A stretch of DNA of 64,000 bases from Abditibacterium sp. Lineage in GTDB: Bacteria > Armatimonadota > Abditibacteriia > Abditibacteriales > Abditibacteriaceae. The position numbers and the translations under genes are program-made. Shown in pieces: positions 676 to 46,291 of the stretch; position 1 is the first letter of the stretch; every line of letters begins with the position of its first letter. The notes beneath the pieces were generated by a model that did not search any database, was not told where the DNA came from, and saw only the letters and a list, made by a program, of their open reading frames with translations. The stretch covers positions 1,120,001 through 1,184,000 of the forward strand of contig CBDASK010000003.1 in NCBI GenBank assembly GCA_965199495.1, in the 5' to 3' direction.

Positions 676-1176
676 TCATCCAAACAATTTCCGGTCGAAC
701 GCCCGATAGTTAATCGCCTCGGCGACGTGGTGCATCTCGATATTCTCGGCGCCCTCCAAGTCCGCGATGGTTCGCGAAACTTTGAGTATTCTGTCGTATC
801 CCCTGCCGCTCAAACCGAACTGCGAAATCGCGGTTTTAAGCAAATCTTTGGTCGCCCCGTCCATCTCGCAAAATTCGCGCAGCTCCTTCGCTTTCATGCG
901 CGCATTGCAACTCGCCGAACTGCCCGCCATGCGCGCCGTTTGCTGCGCCCGCGCGCCACACACGCGCCGTCGCACCGTCGCCGAACTTTCGCCCGTGCGC
1001 TTGCCCATCAGCTCCTCGGACGATAAGCGCGGCACTTCGATGTGAATGTCTATGCGATCCAACAAAGGCCCGCTTATCCGAGAGAGGTAACGCCGGATTT
1101 GCGGCGCGGTGCAGGTGCAGGGCTTTTCCGATGGCGAACCGGTGGGTGTTCCCCCCAGCAGGAAACCGCACGGACA
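676..1176 (-). pseudogene. comM: 3' half of comM/yifB (Mg-chelatase-like AAA+ ATPase), separated from its 5' half by element integration; probably the original chromosomal copy
   Basis: Reads CPCGFLLGG...CTCTAPQIRRYLSRISGPLLDRIDIHIEVP...LSGRGYDRILKVSRTIADL...HVAEAINYR, typical ComM/YifB C-terminal motifs. Homology stops abruptly at the CPCG codons (1176). Confidence 0.93.
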
Positions 1177-2843
1177 TCCATGTCAGATGCAGTTGGAACT
1201 ACATTGACAGAGATATTGGATTTATCGAAAGCATAATAGACCACGGCACGAGCCGTTTTCTTCTCAGCTATCTCTATCGTTTCCACGGTAATCTTCTCGA
1301 CTAAAGCTTCCACGATCTCGCGCTTGATTTCCCAAGAAAGTTCTTCGTCCAACCACTGATTGAAATTTTTCAACCAATCTTCAGTCGTGGCGAGTCGAGC
1401 AGAAGAATACTCGGTTTGGCGGAATTGTTTTTCTATATCCGCAACATGATTTCGCAAGACTTTCTCCTCGGCGTCGATCTTTGAGATTAGCGCGTCATAC
1501 GTGACCTCATTGAACTTCCCTTCGACTAACAGAGTCGCCGCCTTCAGTCGAGCTTTTTGTTTCTCTGCGAGAGCGCATTTGATGGACTCGATTTGTGCCC
1601 CAAGATTTTCCTGTCCCTCCCCCTCCTGCTTCATCTTTTGCTCAATTTGCTCCAGCACTTTGCCAGGGTTACGGAGAAAACTTTCAATGTCTTTCCAGAC
1701 AATCTCCTCAATGTCACCTTGTATAGACTTAGAAGGACATTTTTGGCCACGATCCGCATAGATTCCTCGCGCGTTTTGCTTACCATTGCAGACGTAATAA
1801 GAGCGGACTTTCTTATCTTGCCCCGCCTCGCTCTTCTTCTGGTAAACCCCGCTTACGGTTCCAATATAAGTCAAGCCACATAAATCGCATTTGATTAGAC
1901 CACGCAGCAGATATTTCCGCTTTGCGCTACGCTTGCTAAAGAGCATGTTTTTAGTCAGAGTTGCTTGCGCTTTGTCCCATTGCTCCACTGTTACGATAGC
2001 GGGCATCTCACGTTCAATGGGAGAACGCCCTGATTTGGAGCGACGTCCATATAAATGGACACCCTTATAGATTGGCTCTCGGAGCATATTACAAATGCGC
2101 GAAGGACGCCAAATCGCTTGAGTGCGCTTTTTACGTTTCCCATCCAGCGGATCTTGTTGGTTCACCTGACGATCATCTTTGACATAGGAGGGAGGCACCC
2201 TGAGAGCGTTTAGCTGCTCTGCGATGAAATAACACGAACGCCCCTCTTCCGCCCAGTTGTATATGGAGCGTATAACATCGACTTCTGACAAGGTATGACC
2301 GGCAATTGGTGCATCAGAAATCAATAACTTGGCATCCCTCTTCTTCCCCATTACGCGATAACCATAGGGAACGATGCCGCCGAGCCACGCCCCCTTTGCA
2401 GCCAATTGTAAAGTGGCCGTCCGCGACCGCTCAAGAAAGGTATCGCGTTCAAGTTGACCAAAAACAGACTGTATTCCAGTCATAGCGCGTCCCATTGGCG
2501 AACTCATATCGAGTGTCTCAGTCGCGCTTACGACTACGACACCAAGTTCACTCAAATCTCGCAGTGCCGTCATAGTCACGATTTGCGAGCGCCCCAATCT
2601 ATCCACCTTGTAGATAATAAGGGTAGAAATTTGTCCTCTTTTGGCAGCTTCTACCAAACGCCCCCCGGCAGGGCGTTCTTCCAGTGGTATCGTGCCAGAA
2701 ATTCCATCATCCAAAAACTCTTCTGTGACGGTATACCCGTGATTACGAGCATATTCGCTAACAACATGTATCTGGGTTTGGATGTTTTTGCTTTGTTGCT
2801 GCTTCTCAGTCGAGACGCGGCAGTAGGTAACAGCTTGTTTCAA
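1074..2843 (-). CDS. Large serine recombinase (resolvase + recombinase + zinc ribbon + coiled coil), LSR1
   Basis: YCRVST catalytic Ser motif, DDGISG, KVDRLGR, WLGGIVPYGY, LLRGLIKCDLCG...YYVCNG zinc ribbon. Confidence 0.95.
   Translation of the reverse strand: MKQAVTYCRVSTEKQQQSKNIQTQIHVVSEYARNHGYTVTEEFLDDGISGTIPLEERPAGGRLVEAAKRGQISTLIIYKVDRLGRSQIVTMTALRDLSELGVVVVSATETLDMSSPMGRAMTGIQSVFGQLERDTFLERSRTATLQLAAKGAWLGGIVPYGYRVMGKKRDAKLLISDAPIAGHTLSEVDVIRSIYNWAEEGRSCYFIAEQLNALRVPPSYVKDDRQVNQQDPLDGKRKKRTQAIWRPSRICNMLREPIYKGVHLYGRRSKSGRSPIEREMPAIVTVEQWDKAQATLTKNMLFSKRSAKRKYLLRGLIKCDLCGLTYIGTVSGVYQKKSEAGQDKKVRSYYVCNGKQNARGIYADRGQKCPSKSIQGDIEEIVWKDIESFLRNPGKVLEQIEQKMKQEGEGQENLGAQIESIKCALAEKQKARLKAATLLVEGKFNEVTYDALISKIDAEEKVLRNHVADIEKQFRQTEYSSARLATTEDWLKNFNQWLDEELSWEIKREIVEALVEKITVETIEIAEKKTARAVVYYAFDKSNISVNVVPTASDMDVRAVSCWGEHPPVRHRKSPAPAPRRKSGVTSLG
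1157..1176. other. att core (attR-like) of element B
   Basis: CCGCACGGACA at 1166-1176 is identical to 46281-46291 and marks the point where comM homology ends inside the LSR1 3' end. Confidence 0.8.
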
Positions 2844-2900
2844 CAGATTCTCCTTGAAATATAATGGATAGTCACACTCATCATATCATTGATTTTATCA

Positions 2901-2928: not shown

Positions 2929-2989
2929 CAGTATTTTCATTGCACAAGCAGATGTAATCAGAACATACTTGCGCATTTAAGGAAGTTAC

Positions 2990-3320: not shown

Positions 3321-3791
3321 TCACAAAGCATTCTCCCACATGAAGTCAACCATCCAATCTTCCAATCCTTGCAGGATGACGATGGCTCTGCCAATTCTGC
3401 GTTGGTTGATTTCACTCGACTCTTGGTGCTCCATGCGACTGATTACGTTAACAGACTTGAGAATCCAATCGTTAGGGCACTCAAGAAGGAAGCCAGGGAC
3501 GGGAATCGGCTCATTAGGAACGATGCCGCGCTTTGCACATTCGATCAAGCAGGCGAAGGGTAACAACACGTCAGGTAATCCGCACTCCCAATCGTGGATT
3601 GTGTTCATCGAAGAGGACACAATGGAAGTGACGAGGCCGCTTTTATGCTCGGAGATCCACTGGCGTATTCGAGGTGCAACCAAACTCTTGGGCTGAACAA
3701 TCAATTTCGGGGGGCCATTAATCCCTTGATACTCTACTCTGAAATTGAGCTTTTCGGATCGCAGATGGGCGAGTAGTTGAGATGGACACAT
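3321..3791 (-). CDS. Hypothetical protein coupled to the primase-helicase
   Basis: 156-aa ORF whose start overlaps the stop of 3791-5962. Confidence 0.6.
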   Translation of the reverse strand: MCPSQLLAHLRSEKLNFRVEYQGINGPPKLIVQPKSLVAPRIRQWISEHKSGLVTSIVSSSMNTIHDWECGLPDVLLPFACLIECAKRGIVPNEPIPVPGFLLECPNDWILKSVNVISRMEHQESSEINQRRIGRAIVILQGLEDWMVDFMWENAL

Positions 3792-5962
3792 CAGAACTCC
3801 TCCTCTTCTAAATCATCGGCAGAACTGTGTCTCAGCGTCTCGTCCCCTATAGAGGTATGAGATTGAGACTCTTCGGGAAAAGAAATCTCGTTTGCCTCTG
3901 ATTTATCTTCGGAGTTATGTCTCAGCATCTCATCCTCTATAAGGGTTTGAGATTGAGACACTTCATCCGAAGAATCTTCATCCTCGATCTCAAGCGAAGT
4001 TTGTGTGAAGTCTTCTACCAAATGGTATTTGCCACGCCCCCCACCAGTCTTTGTAATCGAACCCTGCTTTTCCAAGGCTTTTCTTACTCTGTGAAAGGTA
4101 GCGCGCGAGAGGCTTGAGGCCTTCTCCAAGTCAGTTGAAGTGGCTCCATTTGGTGATACTTCGCGCAAGAAGTTCAAGATGCTTGCCTCCTTCTCTCCTT
4201 CTTTTTCTGAGTCAGATTTTTGGTATTCGCCTTCGCAAGTCCAAGTGAAGGTTGATGGGTTCCATTGAAAAGACAGATTGATGTGTTCAACGTCACGTCC
4301 TACCACAAAAAATTTCGCTTGGTCACTATTTCGGTTCCTTTCCAGGATCAATACGCTATCTGCTGCAGCGGTTATTCCCGTTGAACCCGAAACACTCTTC
4401 AATATGTCATCTGTTACCATTTTCGTGGTATGATGAACAAGAATTATGGCGACACCAAATTTATCAGCAAGCGCCTTAAACTCTCCGATATGTTCGTAGT
4501 CTTCAGTGTAGATATCGGACCTATTAACTCTGGCCTGACGAAGTTTCTTGAACGTATCAACGATAACAAGACGAGCTTCTTGATGGGCGCTGAGCCATTC
4601 TTCCAACATCTCCTTCCCTCCTTGGTCGAAAGGAGGCCAGTCATCAGCGAAGTGGAGCGTTTCTGGTGCATCCGCTTCTTGGAGAACTTTGCCAAGCCTG
4701 TCTTGTAAACGCCTCTTCGTGTCTTCGAGCGCTAAGTAAAGAACATCTCCAGCTTCTACTGGAAACCGTCCAAATGCGGAACCACCCTTCGCAATGGTAA
4801 TCCCTAAATCAAGTGACATCCATGACTTCCCTATCTTAGGAGCGCCTACAAGAAGTGTTAATCCTTCCGGTATCAATCCCTCGACTGCCCAACGCATCGG
4901 AGGAAAATCTGCTGACATCAATTCTTTGGCAGTAAGAATCAAAGGAGATGATGGGCTGCTTAATGAGATGAGGCTCTGTAGCGTCTCACCTTCGATCAGA
5001 ATATGGTTCTCTGTAAGGTCTGCCAAAGCATCCTTTAGCGAAGAATTCTCCTTGCGACAATCTTCCCAAAAATCGGATGCGTCGTAACCTTGCTTGACCT
5101 CTGTAGGCCATTGCTTCGCGACTACGTCCAATCCAATGTGGCGAGCCGCCACGCATACGATTTTTGTTGACGATTGCCCGCATTCATCAGCATCAAGCAA
5201 GACGATCAACTTAGCGGTATTTTTGTCTTTTAGACATTGACAGATAACCTGGAAAGATTTAGCACTGCGTCCCTCTCCCAAGGGACAGATCGCACGAATT
5301 CCCTCTTGCCAGAAGAGCCAAACTGCTAATTCGCTATTGACTAAGTAAACGTCGTCGCCAGGTTCAACCAGATGGCAAGCATAAGCAACTGGAATTCCTT
5401 TGCTTTTGGTGTTGTTGTCCCACAGCGTTTTGGCAGGTTTTCTTGGTTTTCCCTGTTTGTCCTCGCTGGGTTGAAGGGCTGGATTTCGATATTTGACTCG
5501 GTGACGCCCCTCCTTCCCATCTGGGTGATGCGTGGGAAACTTTCGAGATTCACCCCATTCGGATTTAGCTCTCATAGGAGCAGAAATCTTGAAAATTTCA
5601 ACTGCTTCCTTTGATAAGCCACGCTCTTCAAGAGAACGAGTATCGTATTGCTTCTGATTGGATACTGTTTGCTTACTTGCGCTTGAGGCAAAGGAATCAG
5701 TCAAGATAGAAGTATTTGCTTCGCTCTTGTGTCCGCGTGATTGAGCTAACTCAAATACCTCTGCCTTTGTATATTTGAGTTGTCCATTTCGCTCGCTACC
5801 ATTTCCCTGAGGAAACAATGCGAACCGATCAGTCCCTTTCCCAGTGAACGGATTTGGGCCTCGGTATGTGTCACCATCTCTGATAGTGAGTCCTAAAGAA
5901 CTCGCAAGTGATGCGAGATCGCTGGGTTGCAATGAGCCAGTATTTAGAGGAAAATTTGACAT
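3791..5962 (-). CDS. Toprim-like primase fused to AAA_25/RepA-type (SF4-like) helicase
   Basis: Toprim-like IVLLDADECG, Walker A GAPKIGKS, YLALED, Walker B LVIVDTF, LVHHTTK, SGSTGITAAADSVL, C-terminal HTH. Confidence 0.85.
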   Translation of the reverse strand: MSNFPLNTGSLQPSDLASLASSLGLTIRDGDTYRGPNPFTGKGTDRFALFPQGNGSERNGQLKYTKAEVFELAQSRGHKSEANTSILTDSFASSASKQTVSNQKQYDTRSLEERGLSKEAVEIFKISAPMRAKSEWGESRKFPTHHPDGKEGRHRVKYRNPALQPSEDKQGKPRKPAKTLWDNNTKSKGIPVAYACHLVEPGDDVYLVNSELAVWLFWQEGIRAICPLGEGRSAKSFQVICQCLKDKNTAKLIVLLDADECGQSSTKIVCVAARHIGLDVVAKQWPTEVKQGYDASDFWEDCRKENSSLKDALADLTENHILIEGETLQSLISLSSPSSPLILTAKELMSADFPPMRWAVEGLIPEGLTLLVGAPKIGKSWMSLDLGITIAKGGSAFGRFPVEAGDVLYLALEDTKRRLQDRLGKVLQEADAPETLHFADDWPPFDQGGKEMLEEWLSAHQEARLVIVDTFKKLRQARVNRSDIYTEDYEHIGEFKALADKFGVAIILVHHTTKMVTDDILKSVSGSTGITAAADSVLILERNRNSDQAKFFVVGRDVEHINLSFQWNPSTFTWTCEGEYQKSDSEKEGEKEASILNFLREVSPNGATSTDLEKASSLSRATFHRVRKALEKQGSITKTGGGRGKYHLVEDFTQTSLEIEDEDSSDEVSQSQTLIEDEMLRHNSEDKSEANEISFPEESQSHTSIGDETLRHSSADDLEEEEF
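3828..3959. repeat. Two 42-bp imperfect direct repeats (90-bp period) built from inverted GTCTCA/TGAGA(C) iterons; putative ori of element B
   Basis: 3828-3869 TGTCTCAGCGTCTCGTCCCCTATAGAGGTATGAGATTGAGAC vs 3918-3959 TGTCTCAGCATCTCATCCTCTATAAGGGTTTGAGATTGAGAC. Confidence 0.7.
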
Positions 5963-7479: not shown

Positions 7480-8661
7480 TTAGCTGTTTTCGTCTGAGTC
7501 ACTCAATGCGAAATGACGGATGAGCTTATCCAACGTGAATGCGTTTGACAGGCGGCAGACGCTATTTTGGTTGGCGAACATTCCTGTTTCTCGATAGGCT
7601 TGCTCACGTTCGACAGTATGAATCCAACGCACAGGAACAACATACTCGCAATCGTCAAGGTTATCGGCATCGTGCCCCATATTGGGCGCATCTAAAGGCA
7701 ATTCCAGCAAAGGGATTTGTCCTTCTGCCCTGTCCGCTTGCCACTGCGTTGCAGGTATAGCATCGCCCTCCACGATTCCAACACCCGCGTAACCGCTACC
7801 AAAACCGTCGCCCGCAGGAAGATATGCGAATACGCGCGCTCCCTTGAATAAAAGTTGTAAGGAGCGGCTATACCACTTGCCACCGCCAGCGGCGATGAAG
7901 CCATAGCGACGACAATCTTCCCAATGGCGAAAATCGTCTTGGAGCACGTTTACGTAGAAATCTTTGCCATTCCAAACTTCACTTGTTGTGCTCTTGCTGC
8001 TCTTCTTAGGTGGTTGAACTTCTGTAGTGTGTGGATCGAGCAACCAGGTGCGTGCCAGCATTGGAGTCCCGCTTTCTTTGAAAAAGTGGAAGAATACAGC
8101 ATTGATTGGCACGCCATAATTATCTGTCAGGTAGCCAATGATCCGCTCAGTTTCACTATCCAATCGGGCGGCTACAATAACGAGGCGATGACCAGCATTT
8201 ATCACTTCGGGAAGCGAGCCGCCAAAGGATTCTTCGTAAACACTTTCAAATGCTAAAGTGGGATTATTATCGGCGAAGATACGCACGATGTCATCATAAG
8301 AAAGCCCTTGAACCCACGACCCATAATCGAGAGTCTGCGCGACTACATCACGAGGCGTTTTATCTCGCTTCAACTCGATCACGACCAAATAGCCCTCTCT
8401 ATCCATTGCCAAAATGTCGATGAACTTACCCGAAGCTGTAACGACTTGTCGCCCTAACAACATCAATCCAGGCGCAACAATAGATAAATCCTGCACAATA
8501 GCGTCTTCCAAATGACGCTCTAAATCGGGCGCACTAAACGTAATCGGCTCTGGTTTGAGTTCAGTTCCGGTAAGTCTCCAAATCTTGAGTTCAATAGGCA
8601 TAATGACACAAATTCTTTTATTTCCGCAACCACTCTCAATCGAGAGAATAAAGCAATTCAA
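7480..8661 (-). CDS. NucS/DUF91-like PD-(D/E)XK endonuclease domain protein
   Basis: ERHLED...GRQVVT..GKFIDILAMD..GYLVVIELKRDKTPRDVVAQTLDY. Start probably at the later MPIELK. Confidence 0.85.
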   Translation of the reverse strand: MNCFILSIESGCGNKRICVIMPIELKIWRLTGTELKPEPITFSAPDLERHLEDAIVQDLSIVAPGLMLLGRQVVTASGKFIDILAMDREGYLVVIELKRDKTPRDVVAQTLDYGSWVQGLSYDDIVRIFADNNPTLAFESVYEESFGGSLPEVINAGHRLVIVAARLDSETERIIGYLTDNYGVPINAVFFHFFKESGTPMLARTWLLDPHTTEVQPPKKSSKSTTSEVWNGKDFYVNVLQDDFRHWEDCRRYGFIAAGGGKWYSRSLQLLFKGARVFAYLPAGDGFGSGYAGVGIVEGDAIPATQWQADRAEGQIPLLELPLDAPNMGHDADNLDDCEYVVPVRWIHTVEREQAYRETGMFANQNSVCRLSNAFTLDKLIRHFALSDSDENS

Positions 8662-8808: not shown

Positions 8809-11079
8809 TTAGGTTGACGTGATGCTGGCCGAACTTTGGCGCTGTCTCAAAATGTAATCGGCCTGCTTCTCAAATTTGGATGCAGTGAGCTTATCCAAAA
8901 CATCCCAGTTTGAGGTGTCAAGAGCCGCAATTCGAGTCTTGACCTCATCCAAATTTTCCAGCCAATCAAAAACGCCAAGGATGATTTCTACGTCATTGAA
9001 CACTGGTGGGTCGTTCACAATCGTGCTTATAGAGCGAAAATGAATGAGGAAGGTGTGCAACTGATCATCCTTTTCGATTTGAGCATTAACCCAATCTTTT
9101 AGGGTCTCTGGCTGAGTTTCTGCCCAAAAGTTGATGGAATGTAGGTAAAGGGGCGAATTCCAAAGCGTTCCGTCTATGGCATGAGCGGCGATACGCTCCA
9201 CGAGAAGCCAGCGGAGTTGACTCAATTGTTCGGTTGTTGCACATGCTTTTTGAAGTGCCCAGACTTCATTTTTAGCGTTGATGCTCTCATTCTTCTGATC
9301 TTCTTTCTGTAGTTCTGCTACAAAAGCGGCGGGAATTCCATAGGCCAAAGAATTGGTTAAAGCCTCAATCAGCACCAAACCTCGTGTTTCTACGTCTGGC
9401 ATTGTTTTCAGCACCTCCTCAATGAAAACCGACACCCAGAGATATAAATCAAGTTCTCTGCCGTGCGCGTCGCTAAAGTTTAATATCGTCGTCAGCAGAC
9501 TTATGTTGTGTTCTTCAGGAACCTTGTCGATGCGCTGTAGTATTTCTCCCAAAAAGACCGTTAAAAGTTCTTGTTTTCTAAAATCGTCGAGCTGCTCCCA
9601 CATAGCTTCGGGTTGCCCGAAGCTATAATAGAATTTTTGAATCTGAGCCTGCGAAATCTGGTTTTGTGGGACTCGCAAAGCGAAGTAGGATGAGGCTTTC
9701 CATAGTGCGTTCCGCCTGTTGTGAATGGCGTATGATTTAGCCTCTTTGGATGTCTTGAAAGCCCAATAAGCTTGAGGGAATACCCATGTCAGAACTTTGC
9801 GCCCTGCATGACTTCGGTGTCCAGAGAGCTTTAACAGGACGGCTACTATCTCAGCGTTACCAGGAACTTCATCTTCATCAAGATTAGAATTTCCTAAAAC
9901 GTGTGCATACTGGCCATGCTCTTTGTTAGTAGATCGACGCGGATTGACCAAGTATTCTTTCACGTTTGGTAATTGTGCGTATACCTTTGGTTCCGTAATA
10001 CGAAGTGCTTCAAGCGCGACAAAATCGGCTAAATCAACTTCAAGCCCAGCTTCACCCACCATGATTGCGAGCGAAAACTCAAGCGCATTAAGCAAGCGAA
10101 TAATGTCGCGGGGTTGCGAGAGCAGTTCTCCCAATCCTCCTTTCTCCCACAGCAAATCGATATCGGATTTATATTCAGCGGAAAACGAGAGTTGCCAAGA
10201 CTTCAGTATTTTCTCGATACCGTCCTTCATCAGGACTTGCCGCTGCGTAGCGTGAATAGTAGGGACATCAATGGGAAGCTGAACAATCTTATCGAGGTAA
10301 TCGCGGCCATACTCGCCGAGCCGCGTTACTAACGCTTCTTCGACGCGGTCTCTTTGCATTAAGAGCAGATAAGTAAAGTTGGGAAAGTCCGCGTTGGCCT
10401 TCACCAATTGGAAGACGAGCATCATTTCTTCGACTTCCAAGCGATCAATGTCATCAATAACAACCAACAGCGGTTTCTCTAACTTTTTGAGTGCCTCACG
10501 CAAATCCTTTTTCTGTTGCTTTAAGCTCGTCTTAAATTCACCCATCGCGTCAACACCCAAATCCAGAACATCAGAAATATCCTTGGCGCCCTTGGCAGCC
10601 GTATTACCAACAATGGAAGCACCCGCTAATCCAAACGTTTCTCCTGCAATGCCTACCCATTTCACAGTGTTACCTAATAGAGCCAGATTCTTACTATAAC
10701 TCCGCAATTTTTGACGACCATCGTTTTGCTCCTCATGCCCTATTTTGAGCGCGATCTCGCCGAAAAAAGCAGCGAACAAAGCGTTTGAATCTTTCAATTG
10801 CCAAGGGTCAAACTCCACGATCTCTGGCCCTGCATTATCCTCTTCGAGCACCTCTAAAACCATGTTCTTGATCGAGGATTTTCCGCAACCCCACGCTCCT
10901 TGCAAACAGACGACAAAACTCTCTCGCCCCTCGCGGCGTTTGATGCTCGCAGCTAAATGTCGAGCGAATTTCTCTCGCCCGAACAAGTCTTGTTCCAAAT
11001 GCTCAATGGGCCGGTCAGAAGCGAACTCAGAGTTGTTCTCTTCTGCGTTTAGTGGCTCTTGTTCAGTGTCGTTATTCAT
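8809..11079 (-). CDS. KAP family P-loop NTPase
   Basis: DLFGREKFA, LQGAWGCGKSS, FDPW, LVVIDDIDRL, YLDKIVQLP, PRDIIRLLN. Confidence 0.92.
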   Translation of the reverse strand: MNNDTEQEPLNAEENNSEFASDRPIEHLEQDLFGREKFARHLAASIKRREGRESFVVCLQGAWGCGKSSIKNMVLEVLEEDNAGPEIVEFDPWQLKDSNALFAAFFGEIALKIGHEEQNDGRQKLRSYSKNLALLGNTVKWVGIAGETFGLAGASIVGNTAAKGAKDISDVLDLGVDAMGEFKTSLKQQKKDLREALKKLEKPLLVVIDDIDRLEVEEMMLVFQLVKANADFPNFTYLLLMQRDRVEEALVTRLGEYGRDYLDKIVQLPIDVPTIHATQRQVLMKDGIEKILKSWQLSFSAEYKSDIDLLWEKGGLGELLSQPRDIIRLLNALEFSLAIMVGEAGLEVDLADFVALEALRITEPKVYAQLPNVKEYLVNPRRSTNKEHGQYAHVLGNSNLDEDEVPGNAEIVAVLLKLSGHRSHAGRKVLTWVFPQAYWAFKTSKEAKSYAIHNRRNALWKASSYFALRVPQNQISQAQIQKFYYSFGQPEAMWEQLDDFRKQELLTVFLGEILQRIDKVPEEHNISLLTTILNFSDAHGRELDLYLWVSVFIEEVLKTMPDVETRGLVLIEALTNSLAYGIPAAFVAELQKEDQKNESINAKNEVWALQKACATTEQLSQLRWLLVERIAAHAIDGTLWNSPLYLHSINFWAETQPETLKDWVNAQIEKDDQLHTFLIHFRSISTIVNDPPVFNDVEIILGVFDWLENLDEVKTRIAALDTSNWDVLDKLTASKFEKQADYILRQRQSSASITST

Positions 11080-11088
11080 AGTTTTCCT

Positions 11089-11859
11089 TTAAATTTTCTC
11101 TCCCCACTCTTCCAACTTCGCTTTGCGCGCTTTCCAATCCGGCAGAAACCGACTGAGCAAGCGATAAAACTCTGGCCCGTGATGCGGGATTTGTAGGTGG
11201 CAGAGTTCATGGAACAGCACGTATTCGATGCAATCCACTGGCGTTTTAACTAAGTCGAGGCCCAACATCAATTTGCCGCCCGCCGTGCAACTTCCCCAGC
11301 GTTTTTCCATGCGGCGCACTTCCCATGTCGGCGGCGCGCTTAACTCCAAACTACGCGCGCCCGCCAGACACTTCTCCAACCACAACGCGAATACTTCGTG
11401 TGCTCGCTCGCGATACCATTCGGTTAGCGATTTCTGCACACGCTCGGTGCGCGATGCTTCGCTCTCATCATACGGCGATTGGGCACGCACCCACAAAAAT
11501 TGGTCTTCAAGCGTAACACCTGCGCGCTCGGATTCGCCGTCGTGCAATTGAATTAATTTGAGACGATAGGCGCGGCCCAGATACCAGTGCGTTTCTCCGG
11601 CGAAGTAGCCGTGTCGGTCATTCGCGGGCTGCGCCGTGGCTGGTGAGAAGCCGCGCCACTGAGTTGCGATCCAACGTGCCTTGGCGTCCACGCGCTTGAG
11701 AACAGTAGCCACGTCAGCGCCGTGCGGCGCCACGACGCTCAAACTACGGTCGGGATGAACCGAAATCGCCACACTTTTGCGCTTGCTATTCTCGATGTTA
11801 AACGGCAATTCGAGCGCGCCGTAACTCAAGATGAAGCCGGACGAAGTTTCGCGGATCAT
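11089..11859 (-). CDS. YgjP/DUF45 (M48-like) metallohydrolase associated with type I R-M
   Basis: RWGSC, IEYVLFHELCHL..PHHGPEFY (HExxH). Coupled to the hsdR stop. Confidence 0.9.
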   Translation of the reverse strand: MIRETSSGFILSYGALELPFNIENSKRKSVAISVHPDRSLSVVAPHGADVATVLKRVDAKARWIATQWRGFSPATAQPANDRHGYFAGETHWYLGRAYRLKLIQLHDGESERAGVTLEDQFLWVRAQSPYDESEASRTERVQKSLTEWYRERAHEVFALWLEKCLAGARSLELSAPPTWEVRRMEKRWGSCTAGGKLMLGLDLVKTPVDCIEYVLFHELCHLQIPHHGPEFYRLLSRFLPDWKARKAKLEEWGEKI

Positions 11860-16985: not shown

Positions 16986-17403
16986 TGCATTTGACCTCGG
17001 TGAGTTCGCCGGTTTCGATGAGTTCATCGAGTCGGCTGTCGTCGGCATCGAGCGTTGGGCCAGCGACAAGTTTGTAGGCTTTCAGTTCGGCAACATTGAG
17101 ATTGGCGCGATTGCTTTTGGCAAAGCCGTAAACAAAAAATGTGCGGTGCGCGGCGCGGAAAAAGAGGATCGAACGAAACCCGCCCGATTTGCCCTGTCCA
17201 GGCCGCGCGATGCGCTGTTTGATGACGCCGCCACCCAAATCGGCGTCAATCAAACCGCGCTCGGCGCGTGCCACGACCTCGCACAATTGAGCGTCGCTGA
17301 TACCGTTGCGCCGCGCGAAACGAGCGAACTCCGCGAATTTGAAAACTCGCATCGCCGCCGCTTCGGGCGTCGCGCCCTCAGATTCGACGTTGAGTTCGTT
17401 CAT
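16963..17403 (-). CDS. RelE/ParE-like toxin (DUF1044 type)
   Basis: FARFARR.GISD..L...GLIDADLGGGVIKQRIARPGQGKSGGFR...FFVYGFAKS.RAN. ATGA overlap with the hsdS stop. Confidence 0.88.
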   Translation of the reverse strand: MNELNVESEGATPEAAAMRVFKFAEFARFARRNGISDAQLCEVVARAERGLIDADLGGGVIKQRIARPGQGKSGGFRSILFFRAAHRTFFVYGFAKSNRANLNVAELKAYKLVAGPTLDADDSRLDELIETGELTEVKCNEENLQE

Positions 17404-38145: not shown

Positions 38146-38488
38146 TCATCCAAATCATTCAGGATACATCTCTATAATTTTGCACTTCATTCAAGTCAGC
38201 AATGGTGCGCGAAAAGTTGAGAATTCGGTCGTAGTCCCACTCCGACTAAAAAACTGCACGACAGAGGTTTTGAGCAAATCTTTGTTTTGCTCATAATCCC
38301 AATCCTTATTCTAAAGAACGACAAACAAAGTTATATATTGGGTGGTCTTCTAATCACGAAAGAGCGAGCGAATACCGGGCCTGCTGAAGATGTGCCTACG
38401 TCTGACAACACCAATTTCTGATTTGGGAAATTATTAGTGTCCGAGACTTTTACAACCTCTTCAACAGAACATGACCACGCGGAACTTA

Positions 38489-39367
38489 GAGTCTGTGCTC
38501 GAAAGGAGTCATTTTCTACCATTCGGGTTCCAAGGTATGCAGTATTTTATCGATCATGGCCCATAGCATCCAAGCTCGGCTGAGATAAGTGTGGCCTTCG
38601 TAGTCTTTGCTTAATGCTTAAGCGCCGGTAGTAATTCATCCAGCCAAAGCTGCGTTCCACAACCCAGCGCACGGGCAATACCTCGAAGCCCTCTGCTCCG
38701 TCGTTGCGCTTAACGATTTCCACCTCGAAGCCAAACTGCCGCTCCATCTTCTCCTGCCACCCCCGACCCGCAAAGCCGCCATCGGCCCACATCACATCCA
38801 ATGACGCGCACATCGACTGCCCAACTATGCGCCAGAATCTCGCCTCGGCTCCTGCGCGTTCGGGCACACTGGCAGGTAAAACTAAAACTTCAAGCCAGTA
38901 GCCCAGAGTGTCCACCACAACAAAGCGCTTGCGTCCGCTCAGGCGTTTGGCTCCATCATAGCCGCGTTGTAGCAAACAGGAGTGCCCCCTTTTGATACCA
39001 CTTTGACGCTCTGACTATCTGTGATAGCGGCTGTAGGTGTTGCTTTTTGCCGTGGAATGTGCGCACTTCTTTGTGGAGCGAGGTATAAAGTTTGTCTAAC
39101 ACGCCGTTCCAGGCCCGGCGATGGTAGCAAGAATACACCGTGCTCCAATTAGGAAGATCATGGGGCAAGTTATGCCATTGACATCCGGTGCGCGCGATAT
39201 ACAAGATGGCGTTGACAATCTCGCGTCTATCCACGCTCGAACGACGCCCTCTGGCGCTTTCGACGTAAGGCCGCACCTCGGCCCACTGTTCATCTGTCAA
39301 ATCGGTATCGTAAGAGCGGCGCATCACAACTCAATTTGACTCCATTACTCCTTTCGAGCACAGACTC
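38489..39367 (-). mobile_element. IS5-family insertion sequence (879 bp)
   Basis: 21-bp perfect TIRs (GAGTCTGTGCTCGAAAGGAGT at 38489-38509, inverse at 39347-39367) with TA on both flanks. Confidence 0.92.
38547..39327 (-). pseudogene. IS5-family transposase split over at least three frames
   Basis: YDTDLTDEQW...RTGCQW..LP.D, then TAAITDSQSVK, then GYDGAKRLSGRKR..VVDTLG...WADGGF...RWVVERSFGW, each in a different frame. Confidence 0.85.
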
Positions 39368-42300
39368 TATGAAATGTATGTTGTGGACCAAAATATCACT
39401 GGATTTTGCAAGTAGCTTTGCAATCGATCCCATAGATCGGGGCGCATCAATAGTTCGCAGCCGATAAAACGTGGGCACTGCTCGTCCATTCCACTTCCAA
39501 TAGAACGCACAGACCAATGACGAAAGACAATGCCGATGTCGCCAGAATCATCGACAAGATGAAGTCTTTTCGGCCAATTGCCAGGCGACAAGCCAAGCCA
39601 CGCCGCAATCTGTGGAGAGAGAGACAAAATCCAACTCTCCCCTAACGTATCTTGGATTTCATCCAGCCCCACGATGCCGCCGCATCGAGAAGGATGCAAG
39701 TGCCCGTGTTGTGCAATTGCATCGTCAGAGCCAATGAACCAATCCTGCGGGTCACCTTGAATGAAGGGATATCCGTTCGCTGAGGGCAAGTCGGATGGCC
39801 CACGCGAAATTAGGGCACCTTGTAAAGTCCTGATCGAGGAAGATAGATACTGCTCGGAGTAAGATGTAACATCACTACCAAGTTCTTCTTCGATAGCAGC
39901 CAGTCTGATCCAGCCATTGAAGACAGAATTTTCTTGAACGGCGTTGGGAGTTGCAAGCAGTTCCACTTCTTGGCTCGAAACAGCGTAAAGCTTTCGGGGA
40001 AGCGGTAAAAACGGACGGGGAATCCGGCTGTTCCAAAGAGAAGTATGTAATCGTATGGAGGAAGTAACTCGTTGAAGTAGCCCCAGTGTAGATTCCGGTG
40101 CCCAAAGCCCCTGACGCACTAAATGGTTGTCAATGTTGTCGAGTAATTCTTGGAAGCTCGCTTCATATATCTCTTGATGCCACCAAAAACACCGAGTTGT
40201 CGGAGCATGGGGATGAACGCGGCTCTTGGCGGATTTCATCAACTCGCCGTCTCTGATTTGGTGTCTTTTGCTGGCGTGGCTTTGTCCCTGCCAAATAGAT
40301 TCGAAATGTTGGATTACAAGAGATGGAAAGTCGGGCCAAACTCTCTTGATTGTATTCGCACGATTGCCCCAATCCAAAGCTGCAATCTTATTCTCAAGAC
40401 GAGGATCGAGAGTCGGCACGTGGTCTACGTGATCCGACAGGAAAGGTAAGTGAGATTTCACTTGGGTAAATCTTTCTAACAGAAGATTCGCCGTGGCTCG
40501 CAGAGCGAAGTGTTTGCATTGTCGCAGCGCAGACAGCTCGTCATACAGAAACTCCGTGATAGGATATGGTTCAATTTCGCTGTTCCAGAGAATTTGCAGA
40601 CAGTGAATCGCCGTTGTTCCATTGATATCGGATTTGAGTAACTCCTTGATCGGAATTTTTAAAGTCAATGGGGCGGTCTGCAAAACGGCACAGACGCCAA
40701 CACAAGCCGCTTGACGCCTTTTATATTCGGGATGACCTAATCGAACCAACAAAAGAAAACTCAGCGCTTCATCAGGTGTCCATTTCGGGACTTGTTGCGG
40801 TTCATAAACCGCAAATGTGCGGTAGCCGGATCCGATGTCAGGTAATCGGGTTTCCAGAACGCGACAAACCTCCTCCCAGGCATCAAAAGCTAAGTTGGGA
40901 TTTTGGTGCCGCGCGCAGAACTTGATGAGGTTTTGTGCCATACCATTAAGATATTCCTTATTGGCGTAGAAGGCGACCTCATTAAATAACACCTCGAAGG
41001 CGACCGGAGAATTTAAATCCCTGGCTTGAAGTAACCAAGATTCAAACTCATTTCCTCCCAGGAATTGGTAGCCGCCCTCGCTGCGCGAACTTGCGTAAGC
41101 CAATGCGAAGGCCACGGCTGCCAGCCATATTTTGCCATAGCGTAAGAAGCCTTCTCCCAAGTGTCCCAGAGGAGTTGCGCCATGATAGAACAGATTCTCG
41201 CGTGCAAAGTGGCGAAGTAGTCTTAGCACCTCGCCCTCGCCCTCACCCTCACCATCATCTTCAGCCAAAGCCAATAGACGATATCCGAAAGCATTGACAA
41301 AATTATCCCAGTGCCCACTTTCCTCTTTGGAGTTGTAAGAATGAAACGAACGGAAAATCGACACCAAATCCGCAGGAGTCGCGTTTGGAGGAAAAACTGG
41401 CTCCCATACAGGCTTTTTTGTTCCTTCCAAAGAAGATTGATGCGCAGGCGGTGAGGGTTGTGAATTCTCACTGGCTTGTGCCTCGCTCACTTCTACTTCT
41501 TCGAACTCATTCTCAGGAGGTAAAATAATGTTCCACTGCGCTGCGAACTCTCGAACAAGTTCAAGAGCCTCTAAGGGACGGCTTGGGCCATCGCCTTCGG
41601 CTTGGGCCAAAAAGTTTTCTGTAGCGCGTTCACCCCATTCGTTATGGACTTGACTGCCACGGCCCTTCTCCATCAAACAGCTCAGTGTTTCCAAGCGACT
41701 TTGGGCCTCTCTCTTCACGTCATCACCATATTCGCGGGAGAGAGCAGGAAAAGGGCGAGTGGCGTCCAGAAAGGTGACAATCAGTGGGTCACAGTCGTCT
41801 CGCTTGCGAGCCTCGTCCAAAACAGATCCGAGGGCCTCATTCAGCATCCAACCGGTCTGATCATCGTCTTGACGCAGAGTTTGAGCCATAACATGGACGG
41901 CGCCGACAAAATCAACGCGCAATAGGGCTTCGAGCCACGAAATCGGCAGACGATTAGTGCTACGGCCATCCGTATGCTTCACCACTGCATCGGGTAAACG
42001 TTGCACACGACAGCACAGACTTTTAGCGCGTTCACCATCGAGATCGGCCAAAAGCGTTAATGGATCGAGGATTTCGTAGAGGGAAATGTCTTTGCGAAAT
42101 CCATACGCCGAAAGAAACTGAGCAGACTTCTCCCAAGCTGTGCTTGCTTCTTCGACACGCTCTGTCGCTAAGAGCGCGCGAACCCTCCAAAATTCATTCT
42201 CGGCGTGCGTCTCATAGTATTGACTATGCTGTTGCCAATCATCGGCCAGTCCTAACAAAAATCTCAGAGCCGATTCTTTGAGTTGAGGCTCATTGGCTAA

Positions 42301-45300
42301 ATTCAGCAAAGACTCAAAAAGGCGAATAGGAGCAAAAGGCCCATTGCCTGACCTATCGAGCCAAGTCGTTGTCTCATAGGAGATGGTGCGAAGAAAAGAT
42401 AAAGTCTGATCCAGAACATCAGGATGCCTTATTAGCGCAGTAGCCCGTCCAAGAATGCCAGTTATGACCGAGTGAATCTGATACAAATCACAGGCTCGCG
42501 GGTTACCCTCGAAAGGCTTTATATCGTGAGCCAAATTCTCCAGAGAGGCTGAAATAAGCTGCTCGGAAGGCAAAGGAGCCGAGTTGGAATCTGCGCCAAC
42601 TTGATCTTCTTGGCGGCGCAGGTTTTCAGCTTGCATAAGCTGAGGGACAAACCGCAACCACTGACGATACCAACCAATTCCTTGTGGCAAGGCTTTGGTG
42701 GTCTCCAAAAGAGTTGGATTCGTCCAAGAAAGCAATTCATTTATCCACACCCAGGAATCGACTAAAAAAGTGTTGGGGTGTCGCTCTGAATTCAAAGACT
42801 GAGCTAAATCCGTTAGCTGTTGGAGTGTCGGTTCAAATGCAGATAGCAGCGTCGCGTCGCAACTTAAAGAAGCACATTCAACCACCAATTCCAAAGGCGG
42901 TGAGTAAGTCAAGGCGAGATCGGCAGCCTGCCGCGCTTCAGTAAACCGAGCGGCACTCAAGTAAGCACGAGCGACTTCGACTTGGATTAGAGCCACGATT
43001 TCTTGGCTATAAGCACCTGCGTCAGCCTGCATCCCAATCAACTCCTCCAAAGCCTCCACACCTATGACTTCCCTAACAGTAGTGATGTAGCCGCGTGCGC
43101 GACCAAGTGGGTAATCGTCGTGAATACTACGGCGCGCTGGCGCGCCGTTAGGAGCTTTAGTTTGCTGACGATCTCGACCGAATTGCCCCAACCAATTGCA
43201 TAGCCCTTGCTTACAAACATCCCAACCAAATACCCGTAACTCGCCTTGAAATTGTGCGGAGCTTTCTAAATCGCTAAAATGCGATTGGTATGAACCTTCG
43301 GTCGTTGTATCAGATAAACCCAAATATTCTGCCCAAGGAACGGATTTCCCCTCTCTATCTCCAATCGAGCAGAGAATGAGACCCTCTTGGCGAATCATCG
43401 TAGGACGGCCATCAAAAAGCAGACGCTCACTCAATATATCCGCGCCATGCACTTGAGCCAGGGTGCGCCCATATTCGAGCATTTCCAACTTGCCCTCGAA
43501 TACCATGCTGGCGTAGCGCAGATGAATGAGACGACACATCGCGGCCCAGTCACCTAATTCAGTGGCAACTGCTAAACCTAAAGCAATGCTGGAATTGATC
43601 GCTTGTCGGGGTTGGCCAGCGGCGATACTGTGAGCAACGAACTCGGTTTCAAGGTATTCAAGAACTTGCGCCCCGTATCCAGCCCGCCGCAAATTAGGCA
43701 GTAGAAATCGGTAGGCTTTGGCATCGAAGTAAAAAGGGCGTTTGCGGAGCCAGTCAATTAGCGGCTGCAAAAGCTGAGGCAAAGTTTGGGAGCCTCCTTG
43801 AATCCTTTCCAAAACGAAACGTCGAAAACTTTCGTGGTAGATGCGAATGCCACCTTGAGATGAAGTTTGCTTGAGGATGGGCCGCAACCGTTTCAACCAT
43901 CCTTCAAGGCGATGACCCAGCAAAGGGAAAATCTCGCGCAACTCGTCGGATTTCAATCCGAAATCGACTACCCCCAAAAGTTCGGCGGCAAAAACAGCAC
44001 TGGCGTCTTCCTTCTCCAGAGCATGAAGTAAAAAGTCATAGTAATTAGAAATTCGGCCAGAGAATGCCGGAAGTTCGTTCAGCTTCTCGTGCCAGAAAAC
44101 CGCGCTCTTTTCTGCACCCAATTGAAGCAATTCCGCACAAAGAAACGTGGCGTAAAGTGGATTACCTTCGCATCGCTCATGTAATTCACCCACGATTTCA
44201 TTCCAAGCTATATCAGCGGCTTCGTCTGGCTGTTCCCATCTTCTGGGCACCAGATGCCCAGAGCGAGACAATACGGTCTTGAGTTCACGCCGCAAGGCCA
44301 ACTCTTCAACATCGGAGAGCGACCAATCTGGCACCACAATCTCTTGCGTCCGATCTCGGATCGGGTCGAGATGTTGCCCCGGTTGGGAACCTAAAATTAG
44401 AGTTACTCCTTCAGGCACACGAAGCGCTTTGAGTTGTTCGATGATATCCACATCGCTCTGGCTGAGATCGCGCTCTTCGCTCAAAACACGCGCGATATGG
44501 TCGAGGCCATCGACAAAAATAATGACTTGCCTTGTCGAACTACTCGTCACTGCATGAGGAAGTAATTGTTCAAAAGCAGCCGCATCTGCGGCGTATATCG
44601 GTTGATGCTGCGCTCTAAGAGTCGGCGCATTTTCTATAAGTTCGACGATGACATTACCCCACATCGCGTTCGTCGTGATGCGCTTCTGAACTTCGACATC
44701 GCCCGGCTCCAAATAACAGTAGTGGCGCGCCACTAAATGCCCCGCCTCTCTCAATTCTCGGCTTAAAGATTCTTGCAGCCAGGATTTGCCAGCTCCAGGT
44801 AAACCTGTCAGCAGAATCAACTCGCCATCTGCAGACTCTATTTTTTGATGCAGATGATCCTGAAACTGAGAGCGGCGAACAAACTCTTTTTCTTCGAGTG
44901 GAAAGCGTTGTGCGACTCGCCCAAAATCGCGCCGCAAGCGTAGAAAGGTTTCCAAGGAATCGACCGTAACCTGACCATCTTCCACTCTGCACTTCTGTGC
45001 TAACCACATCATACTCGCCGCCACATCTATTGGAGTTCGTTCCTGATTCGGGTAGCGACCAATACCAATTCTGTCACGCAAAACCTCAAGGATGAGCATT
45101 TCCAAAGCACCAGGCTTACTAAAGTCGTTGGAAATCGCTGGGCACTTCAACTCTAAAATAAATAGGGATGCAAATTCAACAAAATCCTCGCGCGTGATGT
45201 CAGGTGCATCTTTCAAAGGCTTCCATCGAGATTCTTCTCCGAGAGGCCAGATTTCTTCAACGTTGAAGCGAAATGTCGAGGTGGCGTGACCTTCGAAGCT

Positions 45301-45732
45301 GCTGGAAACGTTGGCATTCTCTAAGAACCCCAAGACACTTGCGTCCGTGGGGTTCAGCCAAGTCGCACAAAATCGGTATTGGGACGCTTGCGAAGCGCCT
45401 GCATCACGGTGACTGCGAATAAGATCATCAATGCGCGCCCTATTTCGGCGCGTAGTTAAATCTTCCAACTGGAACTGTTTCGTAGCATCAGCGCTATGCT
45501 TAATCTGCCGCCGCGTATGACCCTCCGAGTTAGCAAGGGCAACGTCATCGAACTTATCAGTTTTGTGGATGAGCTGATTCGCAGTGAGAACACCTTCCTG
45601 TGCAGCCACAGTTTTGAGCATCAAGTAACAGACAACTGCATCTTGGTAGGTGTAACCACGCATAGCGGCTTCGAGGCTTGATGGGGTTAATGGAACAGAG
45701 GGAGCCAGAATTGTGGAAGCAAGTGAAACCAT
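39367..45732 (-). CDS. PD-(D/E)XK (Cap4/Mrr-like) nuclease + STAND ATPase + long sensor (Avs-like NLR)
   Basis: AAMRGYTYQD...FDDV...QIKH nuclease motif, Walker A GLPGAGKS, Walker B FVDGLDH, GNPLY, IYHESF; 2121 aa. Confidence 0.88.
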   Translation of the reverse strand: MVSLASTILAPSVPLTPSSLEAAMRGYTYQDAVVCYLMLKTVAAQEGVLTANQLIHKTDKFDDVALANSEGHTRRQIKHSADATKQFQLEDLTTRRNRARIDDLIRSHRDAGASQASQYRFCATWLNPTDASVLGFLENANVSSSFEGHATSTFRFNVEEIWPLGEESRWKPLKDAPDITREDFVEFASLFILELKCPAISNDFSKPGALEMLILEVLRDRIGIGRYPNQERTPIDVAASMMWLAQKCRVEDGQVTVDSLETFLRLRRDFGRVAQRFPLEEKEFVRRSQFQDHLHQKIESADGELILLTGLPGAGKSWLQESLSRELREAGHLVARHYCYLEPGDVEVQKRITTNAMWGNVIVELIENAPTLRAQHQPIYAADAAAFEQLLPHAVTSSSTRQVIIFVDGLDHIARVLSEERDLSQSDVDIIEQLKALRVPEGVTLILGSQPGQHLDPIRDRTQEIVVPDWSLSDVEELALRRELKTVLSRSGHLVPRRWEQPDEAADIAWNEIVGELHERCEGNPLYATFLCAELLQLGAEKSAVFWHEKLNELPAFSGRISNYYDFLLHALEKEDASAVFAAELLGVVDFGLKSDELREIFPLLGHRLEGWLKRLRPILKQTSSQGGIRIYHESFRRFVLERIQGGSQTLPQLLQPLIDWLRKRPFYFDAKAYRFLLPNLRRAGYGAQVLEYLETEFVAHSIAAGQPRQAINSSIALGLAVATELGDWAAMCRLIHLRYASMVFEGKLEMLEYGRTLAQVHGADILSERLLFDGRPTMIRQEGLILCSIGDREGKSVPWAEYLGLSDTTTEGSYQSHFSDLESSAQFQGELRVFGWDVCKQGLCNWLGQFGRDRQQTKAPNGAPARRSIHDDYPLGRARGYITTVREVIGVEALEELIGMQADAGAYSQEIVALIQVEVARAYLSAARFTEARQAADLALTYSPPLELVVECASLSCDATLLSAFEPTLQQLTDLAQSLNSERHPNTFLVDSWVWINELLSWTNPTLLETTKALPQGIGWYRQWLRFVPQLMQAENLRRQEDQVGADSNSAPLPSEQLISASLENLAHDIKPFEGNPRACDLYQIHSVITGILGRATALIRHPDVLDQTLSFLRTISYETTTWLDRSGNGPFAPIRLFESLLNLANEPQLKESALRFLLGLADDWQQHSQYYETHAENEFWRVRALLATERVEEASTAWEKSAQFLSAYGFRKDISLYEILDPLTLLADLDGERAKSLCCRVQRLPDAVVKHTDGRSTNRLPISWLEALLRVDFVGAVHVMAQTLRQDDDQTGWMLNEALGSVLDEARKRDDCDPLIVTFLDATRPFPALSREYGDDVKREAQSRLETLSCLMEKGRGSQVHNEWGERATENFLAQAEGDGPSRPLEALELVREFAAQWNIILPPENEFEEVEVSEAQASENSQPSPPAHQSSLEGTKKPVWEPVFPPNATPADLVSIFRSFHSYNSKEESGHWDNFVNAFGYRLLALAEDDGEGEGEGEVLRLLRHFARENLFYHGATPLGHLGEGFLRYGKIWLAAVAFALAYASSRSEGGYQFLGGNEFESWLLQARDLNSPVAFEVLFNEVAFYANKEYLNGMAQNLIKFCARHQNPNLAFDAWEEVCRVLETRLPDIGSGYRTFAVYEPQQVPKWTPDEALSFLLLVRLGHPEYKRRQAACVGVCAVLQTAPLTLKIPIKELLKSDINGTTAIHCLQILWNSEIEPYPITEFLYDELSALRQCKHFALRATANLLLERFTQVKSHLPFLSDHVDHVPTLDPRLENKIAALDWGNRANTIKRVWPDFPSLVIQHFESIWQGQSHASKRHQIRDGELMKSAKSRVHPHAPTTRCFWWHQEIYEASFQELLDNIDNHLVRQGLWAPESTLGLLQRVTSSIRLHTSLWNSRIPRPFLPLPRKLYAVSSQEVELLATPNAVQENSVFNGWIRLAAIEEELGSDVTSYSEQYLSSSIRTLQGALISRGPSDLPSANGYPFIQGDPQDWFIGSDDAIAQHGHLHPSRCGGIVGLDEIQDTLGESWILSLSPQIAAWLGLSPGNWPKRLHLVDDSGDIGIVFRHWSVRSIGSGMDEQCPRFIGCELLMRPDLWDRLQSYLQNPVIFWSTTYIS

Positions 45733-45793
45733 AGGTGAGTCGCTGTTAAAATTTCATCTACACGAGTGACAACATATCTTTAAAGGTGCATCT

Positions 45794-46291
45794 CTATCCG
45801 AATAGCTTCCGGTCGAACGCTCTGTAATTGATCGCTTCCGCAACGTGATGCATCTCTATATTTTGTGCGTCATCCAAGTCGGCAATCGTGCGCGAAACTT
45901 TCAGAATACGGTCATAACCGCGCCCCGATAAACCAAATTGCGCGATAGCGGTCTTGAGTAAGTCTTTAGTTGACGCATCCATTTCACACCATTGTCTCAA
46001 CTCTTTAGCTCTCATGCGCGCATTACAACTTACGCTCGAACCTTCCATGCGAGCCGTCTGTTGCGCCCGTGCGCGTTGCACGCGTTTTCTCACGGTGGCA
46101 GAGCTTTCACCTACTCTCTTGCCCATCAATTCTTCGGACGAAAGTCGCGGCACCTCAATGTGAATGTCAATGCGGTCGAGCAATGGTCCCGATATGCGCG
46201 ATAGGTATCTACGAATCTGCGGAGCCGTGCAAGTGCAGGGTTTTACATCTGGTGAACTCGACGTATTACCCAACAGGTTTCCGCACGGACA
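45794..46291 (-). pseudogene. comM: Second, diverged comM 3' half (element-borne replacement, now detached from the 5' half by element A)
   Basis: CPCGNLLG...SRISGPLLDRID...RAFDRKLFG. 15 differences in the last 129 aa versus 676-1065, plus many synonymous changes. Confidence 0.92.

Follow-up and report, generated by a model that had tools for sequence, protein, structure and literature searches.

The insertion of large serine recombinase (LSR) elements into comM is often read as mobile elements sabotaging the competence of their hosts. The excerpted text of Durrant et al. 2022 states that Mg-chelatase homologues are targeted by 12.4% of the predicted site-specific LSRs, that competence genes are enriched among LSR targets with comM the single most enriched, and that the insertion is disruptive (PMC10083194). 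A similar case, in the part of Bordenstein and Bordenstein 2022 that concerns it, is sr1WO of phage WO, which integrates into the Mg-chelatase gene of Wolbachia and disrupts this target (PMC9203015). Here, we analyzed a stretch of 64,000 nucleotides from an Abditibacterium sp. (hereafter the window, positions 1120001-1184000 of contig C3), where the same recombinase class has met the same target gene. The locus is very probably a tandem array in which at least four genomic islands occupy comM; each is flanked by a copy of the final 166 codons of the gene that it brought along, and each would have entered by LSR-mediated crossover at the CPCG codons. Whereas the comM-targeting LSR elements described so far (sr1WO and those of the Durrant survey) disrupt their target, the islands of this array appear to supply a replacement 3′ third and leave comM whole.

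Elements that restore their target with a 3′ end of their own are well known from tRNA and tmRNA genes, and in icd about 165 nucleotides are replaced by phage 21 or e14, with synonymous differences. In this tyrosine-integrase type, the element carries a diverged duplicate of the 3′ segment of its target, beginning at the crossover, so that integration reconstitutes the gene and displaces its former end, and the same is seen in the array. However, the icd and tRNA type employs a tyrosine integrase and a few tens of codons or nucleotides, whereas the array employs serine recombinases and 166 codons, which comprise the whole Mg_chelatase_C domain. The array therefore works like the gene-restoring group, from outside the classical integrase family. 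Excerpts of two papers place the integration of phage 21 and e14 within icd (PMC12803456) and state that many islands restore their target gene (PMC12884075). The excerpted text of McMurdie et al. 2011 describes serine-recombinase islands that stand in tandem downstream of the single-copy ssrA gene of Dehalococcoides, with 20-bp repeats of the 3′ end of the target (PMC3146451). According to the same excerpt, some of these islands are without an integration module and the recombinase open reading frame overlaps the attachment (att) repeat, as is likewise the case for island E1b and recombinase LSR1 described below; the repeat in Dehalococcoides is 20 bp of an RNA gene, whereas that of the array is about 500 bp of coding sequence that must stay in frame. 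For a comM-associated island of Acidithiobacillus ferrooxidans, the excerpted source gives the direct repeat entry "702,14" (PMC10322971), which looks like a short repeat and not a 500-bp replacement. Our literature search, which excluded supplements, found no published comM-restoring LSR element, and no mobile-element paper was among the Abditibacterium literature matches listed. LSR targeting of comM and gene-restoring islands are thus each known, and an LSR island that carries a comM third and stacks looks new.

The genome comprises 4.81 Mb in 3 contigs, with C3 accounting for 4.72 Mb, and as comM lies on the minus strand, "downstream" means lower coordinates throughout. By BLAST against the genome and a search with Pfam PF01078, we found a single comM 5′ part in the whole genome, together with four intact 3′ thirds and a decayed remnant, which share one orientation on the minus strand. 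The window holds the intact copies c1 and c2 together with the remnant, and c3 and c4 lie 12 kb and 70 kb beyond its end. On the minus strand, the order is the comM 5′ part with c4, island E3, c3, island E2, c2, island E1b, the comM remnant, island E1a, c1 and host genes (GH43, GH2). The comM features are the following.

Window 676-1176 (C3:1120676-1121176), minus strand: c1, comM 3′ third, 166 codons plus stop, beginning with CPCG.
Window 1166-1176, minus strand: core TGTCCGTGCGG at the E1a/c1 junction, attR-like.
Window ~38163-38284, minus strand: decayed comM 3′ remnant, frameshifted, 77% identical to c2 over 123 nucleotides (E 6e-21).
Window 45794-46291 (C3:1165794-1166291), minus strand: c2, comM 3′ third carried by E1b, 165 codons plus stop, beginning with CPCG.
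Window 46281-46291, minus strand: core TGTCCGTGCGG at the E2/c2 junction, attR-like.
C3:1196495-1196995, minus strand: c3, comM 3′ third, E2's own copy, intact and detached.
C3:1254336-1254837, minus strand: c4, comM 3′ third joined to the 5′ part.
C3:1254838-1255883, minus strand: comM 5′ part, the sole one in the genome.
C3:1254336-1255883, minus strand: full comM (5′ part plus c4), open in-frame fusion of 515 amino acids.

The 515-residue protein matches ChlI (PF13541, 1.8e-44), Mg_chelatase (PF01078, 2.5e-90) and Mg_chelatase_C (PF13335, 8.2e-32), all at full length, and c2 alone retains a Mg_chelatase_C match of 1.3e-33. Only c4 is fused to a 5′ part, and c1, c2 and c3 are preceded by island DNA. 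Neither a second comM 5′ part nor a second full comM was found in the genome by BLAST and the PF01078 search, which speaks against the copies belonging to separate full paralogues. As judged from its sequence, the ComM formed by the 5′ part and c4 is presumably functional; comEC and dprA family matches are also present in the genome. We consider c1 likely to be the original comM 3′ end of the host, now detached, and the remnant is probably E1a's own comM copy, shortened at both ends.

The original prediction, which concerned c1 and c2, had both comM 3′ parts begin at the CPCG codons and a shared 11-bp core, about 88% identical over the last 129 residues, with many synonymous differences and intact frames, and it sought the comM 5′ part past position 64000. 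All of this was borne out: the two copies begin as described, 114 of the 129 residues (88.4%) agree, the 165 aligned codons contain 86 synonymous and 21 non-synonymous codon differences (71.5% nucleotide and 87.3% amino acid identity), both frames are open, and the 5′ part lies past the window, fused in frame to a further 3′ copy, c4. The decayed third copy in the window, the two intact copies past its end and the fusion of the 5′ part to the last of them go beyond that prediction. The island that carries c2 (E1b) appears to be a recombinase-less remnant, and the decayed comM remnant separates it from E1a, the island of the 589-residue recombinase. A restored ComM is indeed present as an open 515-residue frame, but by way of c4 and not c2; c2 is no longer the working copy, having been displaced by two later islands.

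At least four islands (E1a, E1b, E2 and E3) lie between the copies, three of them with an LSR at or near the core-proximal end. The features at these ends are listed here.

Window 1177-38162, minus strand: island E1a, about 37 kb, LSR1 and cargo.
Window 1074-2843, minus strand: LSR1 of E1a, 589 amino acids, reading across the core and ending about 100 nucleotides inside c1 in another frame.
C3:1166292-1196494 (window part 46292-64000), minus strand: island E2, 30.2 kb.
Window 46371-47299, minus strand: two small genes, of 212 and 97 amino acids, between the core and LSR2.
Window 47354-49660, minus strand: LSR2 of E2, 768 amino acids.
C3:1210057-1212207: LSR3 of E3, 717 amino acids.

LSR1, LSR2 and LSR3 each contain Resolvase (PF00239), Recombinase (PF07508) and Zn_ribbon_recom (PF13408) matches above the cut-offs, and the island-end recombinases are of the serine type only, with no tyrosine integrase among them. 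LSR2 and LSR3 are 77% identical, and LSR1 and LSR2 are 38% identical over their whole length. The last ~30 codons of LSR1 come from c1, read in a frame other than that of comM, so that the C-terminus of the recombinase would not be the same in the integrated as in the excised state.

The 11-nucleotide core TGTCCGTGCGG corresponds to the CPCG codons and forms the start of all four intact copies; counted on both strands, it occurs seven times on C3, and four of these occurrences are the comM junctions. In both c1 and c2, the core directly follows unrelated DNA. On the recombinase side, the arms of E2 and E3 have the common motif TTGGCGTTGG, and the E1a arm ends in CATGGA. The right arms differ as well, with c2 starting with AAACCTGTTGGG and c1, c3 and c4 starting with TTTCCTGCTGGG, and c3 and c4 are identical over 23 nucleotides from the core onward. 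Since the related LSR2 and LSR3 adjoin c2 and c3, respectively, despite this variation, the comM-side right arm is apparently read loosely. The recombinase-side arm has only the core of 11-12 nucleotides in common with comM, and the other arm consists of about 500 nucleotides of comM that are 72-85% homologous. LSR elements have att sites that share a short core only, and the comM homology of the second arm is therefore atypical. A GGCGTT...AACGCC dyad around the E2-type site was considered as the crossover center and rejected, as its center falls outside the sequence common with c2.

Taken together, these features suggest the following course of integration. The free island would be circular, with the LSR followed by the core and then by the island's own comM third. 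The LSR would recombine this attP with the comM attB at the CPCG codons, and the crossover must lie within GTGTCCGTGCGG because it is the only sequence common to all partner sites. The 5′ two-thirds of the host gene would thereby be fused in frame to the island third, and the previous third would come to lie at the distal end of the island, where it has neither a start codon nor a promoter. The resulting junction of 5′ part, core and 3′ third would possess the same left arm and a homologous right arm and would thus again be a usable attB. Because each newcomer would enter beside the 5′ part, the most recent island (E3, with Dpd) is expected to be proximal and the oldest and most decayed (E1) distal. 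This order of arrival fits the variation of the right arms and the state of the distal island region, which contains an insertion sequence (IS), one missing recombinase and the only decayed comM copy of the array. As in an accretion array, there are five repeats, at least four islands in series and decay concentrated distally. More speculatively, with right arms so alike on the island side and the host side, the attL left by integration may act as a fresh attB and attR as a fresh attP, in which case the recombinase alone, with no directionality factor, is predicted both to insert and to excise.

The choice of the site is not peculiar to this genome. Among 80 loci retrieved from other genomes with the alignment of LSR1-LSR3, of which the nearest are from Abditibacterium sp. 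(L056-L060), 35 have a comM 5′ part that ends at residue 349-361 and lies head-on against the end of the LSR gene, and another 15 have a comM 3′ part that starts next to the LSR on the same strand. A further 14 were classed as "other", at least 8 of which are comM 5′ pieces that break off next to the LSR at residue 347-357, either in two segments or starting late; the remaining 16 have no comM piece, and several of those end at contig ends. The named hosts include Bacillota, Chloroflexota, Acidobacteriota and Desulfobacterota. Because 50 of the 80 loci break comM there, the boundary of comM homology in the array is the target site of this LSR clade. In all five Bacillota genomes that were checked, one 5′ part and one 3′ part lie 40-57 kb apart with no restoring copy, and one of these genomes also has a distant full-length comM paralogue. 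Many of the LSR relatives in other phyla have a match whose end extends 10-109 nucleotides into the adjoining comM piece.

Within the genus, comM remains whole. All nine genus genomes with a full-length comM hit have the gene open and have extra 3′ pieces, with the highest numbers of matches in G012 (24), G010 (12) and G002 (11). Four genomes (G004, G009, G002 and G006) have their extra pieces on the comM strand, downstream of the gene. At least two comM 3′ pieces at E ≤ 1e-30 are found in 8 of the 11 other genus genomes, compared with 0 of 11 genomes of other genera in the family. Thirteen of 14 detached fragments in relatives start at the core or at a version of it with 1-2 mismatches, and the other one is truncated. 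Two observations on the relatives stand apart. Many of the 24 matches in G012 lie hundreds of kb from the intact comM, on both strands (C1 57 kb-295 kb and 6.18-6.59 Mb), and either the arrays have been rearranged or the fragments travel to other sites. G020, which belongs to a different genus of the family, has its comM interrupted near residue 200 (C1:2145603-2146568 and 2175444-2176103) and not at the CPCG site, with the halves 30 kb apart.

Comparisons of sister genomes support the view that the attached 3′ third is foreign to its host lineage, as far as sequence comparison can tell. A tree of the comM 5′ parts gave the groups (G008,(G005,G006)), (G000,G004) and (G009,(G002,(G010,G012))). 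Between G005 and G006, comM identity per 150 nucleotides is 0.90-0.96 up to nucleotide 1050 and 0.66-0.72 thereafter, with CPCG at nucleotide 1048, and the synonymous divergence (dS) is 0.32 in the 5′ part versus 1.33 in the attached 3′ part. The detached copies of G006 are 84.5% and 81.1% identical to the attached 3′ part of G005, whereas the attached copy of G006 reaches only 69.7%. Similarly, G012 and G010 are 80.7% identical in the 5′ part, 65.6% in the attached copies and 75.3% in the detached comparison. Measured against G004, the 5′ part of the genome studied here has a dS of 0.70, whereas c1 gives 0.80 and c4 gives 1.37; c1 therefore resembles the orthologous end, being near the value of the 5′ part, and c4, with its higher value, resembles an import.

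The four intact copies share 71.5-84.7% nucleotide and 85.5-97% amino acid identity in pairwise comparison, with dS from 0.7 to saturation. The pairwise ratio of non-synonymous to synonymous divergence (dN/dS) is 0.03-0.09 by NG86 and YN00, far from the value near 1 that would have spoken against conserved coding. The most divergent copy is c2, with a G+C content at third codon positions (GC3) of 0.52 versus 0.69-0.72 in the other copies. Displaced copies decay, as seen in the remnant in the window and in the many short or stop-containing pieces in relatives, which fits a loss of selection after detachment.

Notwithstanding, several observations weigh against the array model. Maximum-likelihood estimates of dN/dS are similar to those above except for c2-c3, an outlier of 0.73 at saturated dS. 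The low ratio itself is ambiguous: the element-borne ~165 codons had been predicted to be under purifying selection, and this agrees with the low dN/dS, but the ratio cannot separate selection on the element from selection during service in a host comM. The prediction had also looked to a tree with host comM, which gave a mixed answer; the identity and dS profiles point to a foreign attached third in the sister genomes, but in approximately unbiased (AU) tests on the 500-nucleotide alignment, a placement of the attached G006 and G012 copies with the host clade was not rejected (p 0.25 and 0.18, respectively). Because this tree test is non-significant, the donor argument rests on the contrasts in identity and dS. 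Moreover, c1, c3 and c4 form one cluster with both G004 copies (support 92/83), c2 sits with the G000/G004 group at weak support (64/76), and the attached and detached copies of G004 are 98% identical. This identity and clustering imply that donors are often close relatives or that the copies have been homogenized by conversion, and with copies so like those of the host clade, "native" and "foreign" are hard to call in the genome studied here. The GH43/GH2 flank below c1 has no counterpart next to comM in relatives, and the GH43 protein is not near comM in five genus genomes; since the downstream flank of c1 is unconserved, synteny gives no independent support for c1 as the native end. Within the array, the recombinase of E3 lies 13 kb from its core and E1b is without a recombinase. 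Finally, contigs of four public runs revealed no circle, empty site or alternative junction at the c3 junction, although contigs cannot show rare forms; one run contained 96% of the sampled words and another 48%. No join of the comM 5′ part to c3 and no circle join was among the loose ends listed at that junction, and these ends, which were considered as alternative joints, proved to be cross-mapping of the c1 copy.

Could the islands have arrived in another way? RecA-dependent (Campbell-type) homologous recombination through the ~500-bp comM segment, with no part for the LSR, would also yield a full comM upstream and a truncated copy downstream, so that the architecture alone is compatible with it, and the 98% identity of the G004 copies and the clustering of copies by genome indicate that homologous exchange or conversion between copies probably occurs. 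However, copies that are only 72-85% identical are a poor substrate for homologous recombination, and the homology starts exactly at the site used by LSR relatives in other phyla, where no homologous segment is carried. The identity break in the sister genomes falls at the core and is not scattered through the 3′ third, and the LSR gene abuts the core. We therefore regard homologous entry as very unlikely. Host-made segmental duplications or paralogues, between which unrelated islands settled later, would explain the repetition itself and nothing else; the genome has a single 5′ part, dS between the copies is at least 0.7, and each copy starts at the same nucleotide beside a recombinase-side arm with a shared motif, which makes this origin exceedingly improbable.

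A subtler possibility accepts LSR-mediated entry; it shares its mechanism with the array model and departs from it only in the object of selection. The comM third might be a passive hitchhiker, acquired from an earlier host by imprecise or composite excision and not maintained for coding on the element, and the low dN/dS would then stem from the time spent in a host comM. As dN/dS does not tell the period on the element apart from that in a working host gene, displaced copies decay, and most copies are host-clade-like, the data accommodate this idea to some extent. Nevertheless, all nine genus genomes keep comM open despite 1 to more than 20 insertions, which would be unlikely if incoming copies were often defective, and c2, of differing composition (GC3 0.52), is yet intact with a strong Mg_chelatase_C match. 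We consider the hitchhiker very unlikely, and we retain the model in which each LSR island enters at the CPCG codons with its own comM third.

The cargo of the islands is mainly defense, comprising type I restriction-modification (R-M), Avs-like, Druantia/DISARM-like and Dpd systems. Primase/helicase-like genes (AAA_25, DUF3854) occur in E1a, E2 and E3, and no capsid or conjugation genes were recognized in the annotation of the island genes. The cargo features in the window are given below.

Window 3791-5962: primase/helicase-like AAA_25 protein, E1a.
Window 7480-8661: PDC-S11, E1a.
Window 8809-11079: PifA-like KAP NTPase, E1a.
Window 11856-15143: HsdR of the type I R-M system, E1a.
Window 17400-18635: HsdS of the same system.
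Window 18608-20287: HsdM of the same system.
Window 20380-21255: TIR protein, PDC-S66/ThsB-like, E1a.
Window 38547-39327, minus strand: IS5-family transposase in two overlapping frames (DUF4096, DDE_Tnp_1), beside the comM remnant.
Window 39367-45732, minus strand: Avs-like STAND NTPase, 2121 amino acids (Avs1b 6.6e-19), the only remaining cargo of E1b.
Window 51245-53857: DUF3854 primase-like protein, E2.
Window 57807-63752: DruE-like helicase/PLD protein, 1981 amino acids, E2.

E1a also contains RelE-like and helix-turn-helix genes and three large open reading frames of 1118, 409 and 1556 amino acids; its very large frames have Dsr1-like stretches or an N-terminus that is HNH-like. E1b appears to be an island remnant that has no recombinase and consists of the Avs-like gene and the IS5-family IS. 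This IS is apparently single-copy, as megablast of E1 against the genome gave no other copy, and a deletion that it brought about is the likely reason why the Avs island has no recombinase end and why most of the neighboring comM copy is gone. E2 additionally carries regulators in the window and, past it, a DrmMI-like methylase, a BrxHII/DrmD-like helicase and a PLD protein, followed by its own comM copy, c3. E3 spans 57.3 kb and has matches to DpdA-H, DpdJ and DpdK. Next to Dpd (C3:1225396-1231211) are a LexA-like repressor, an ImuB-like Y-family polymerase, a DUF6504 protein and a DnaE2-like error-prone polymerase.

The small genes beside the cores form a recurrent module. The 212/97-residue pair of E2 also adjoins the E3 core (C3:1197069-1198031) and a core in the relative L042. 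Neither these two genes nor a 184-residue gene beside c4 had a Pfam match even at E ≤ 0.5, and the only PHROG match among the core-adjacent genes was that of the 212-residue protein to PHROG 14664, whose function is unknown. The pair could be a candidate directionality factor or addiction module. In E3, the core is separated from LSR3 by this module and about 12 kb of dehydrogenase and stress genes. The non-defense genes there (C3:1198031-1210076) encode two zinc alcohol dehydrogenases, an SDR, a catalase-like protein, a TMEM175-like channel, a DUF4142 protein and a DUF1559/N-methyl protein; E2 has no such intervening genes, and its recombinase directly adjoins the small-gene module. In L042, the flank downstream of comM (L042:344-495) contains a ~130-nucleotide repeat that matches about 12 dispersed sites of C3 at 77-89% on both strands, and this looks like a small dispersed repeat family.

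Overall, the array runs counter to what has been described for this target, in that one lineage within the recombinase clade keeps comM whole. It also explains the numerous orphan comM C-terminal fragments and the sharp mosaic boundary inside an otherwise vertically inherited gene. As a tool, a serine recombinase that can act anew on its own product site could permit successive insertions at a single position; how directionality is controlled is a further question that the array raises. We tentatively speculate that in this genus comM may serve as an integron-like docking platform, in which the Mg_chelatase_C third is portable, moves with the defense islands and is swapped at each integration, so that the C-terminus of the host ComM would be exchanged time and again for horizontally acquired versions and islands would pile up without a cost to competence. 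The locus shows how type I R-M, Avs-like, Druantia/DISARM-like and Dpd systems stack at one locus.

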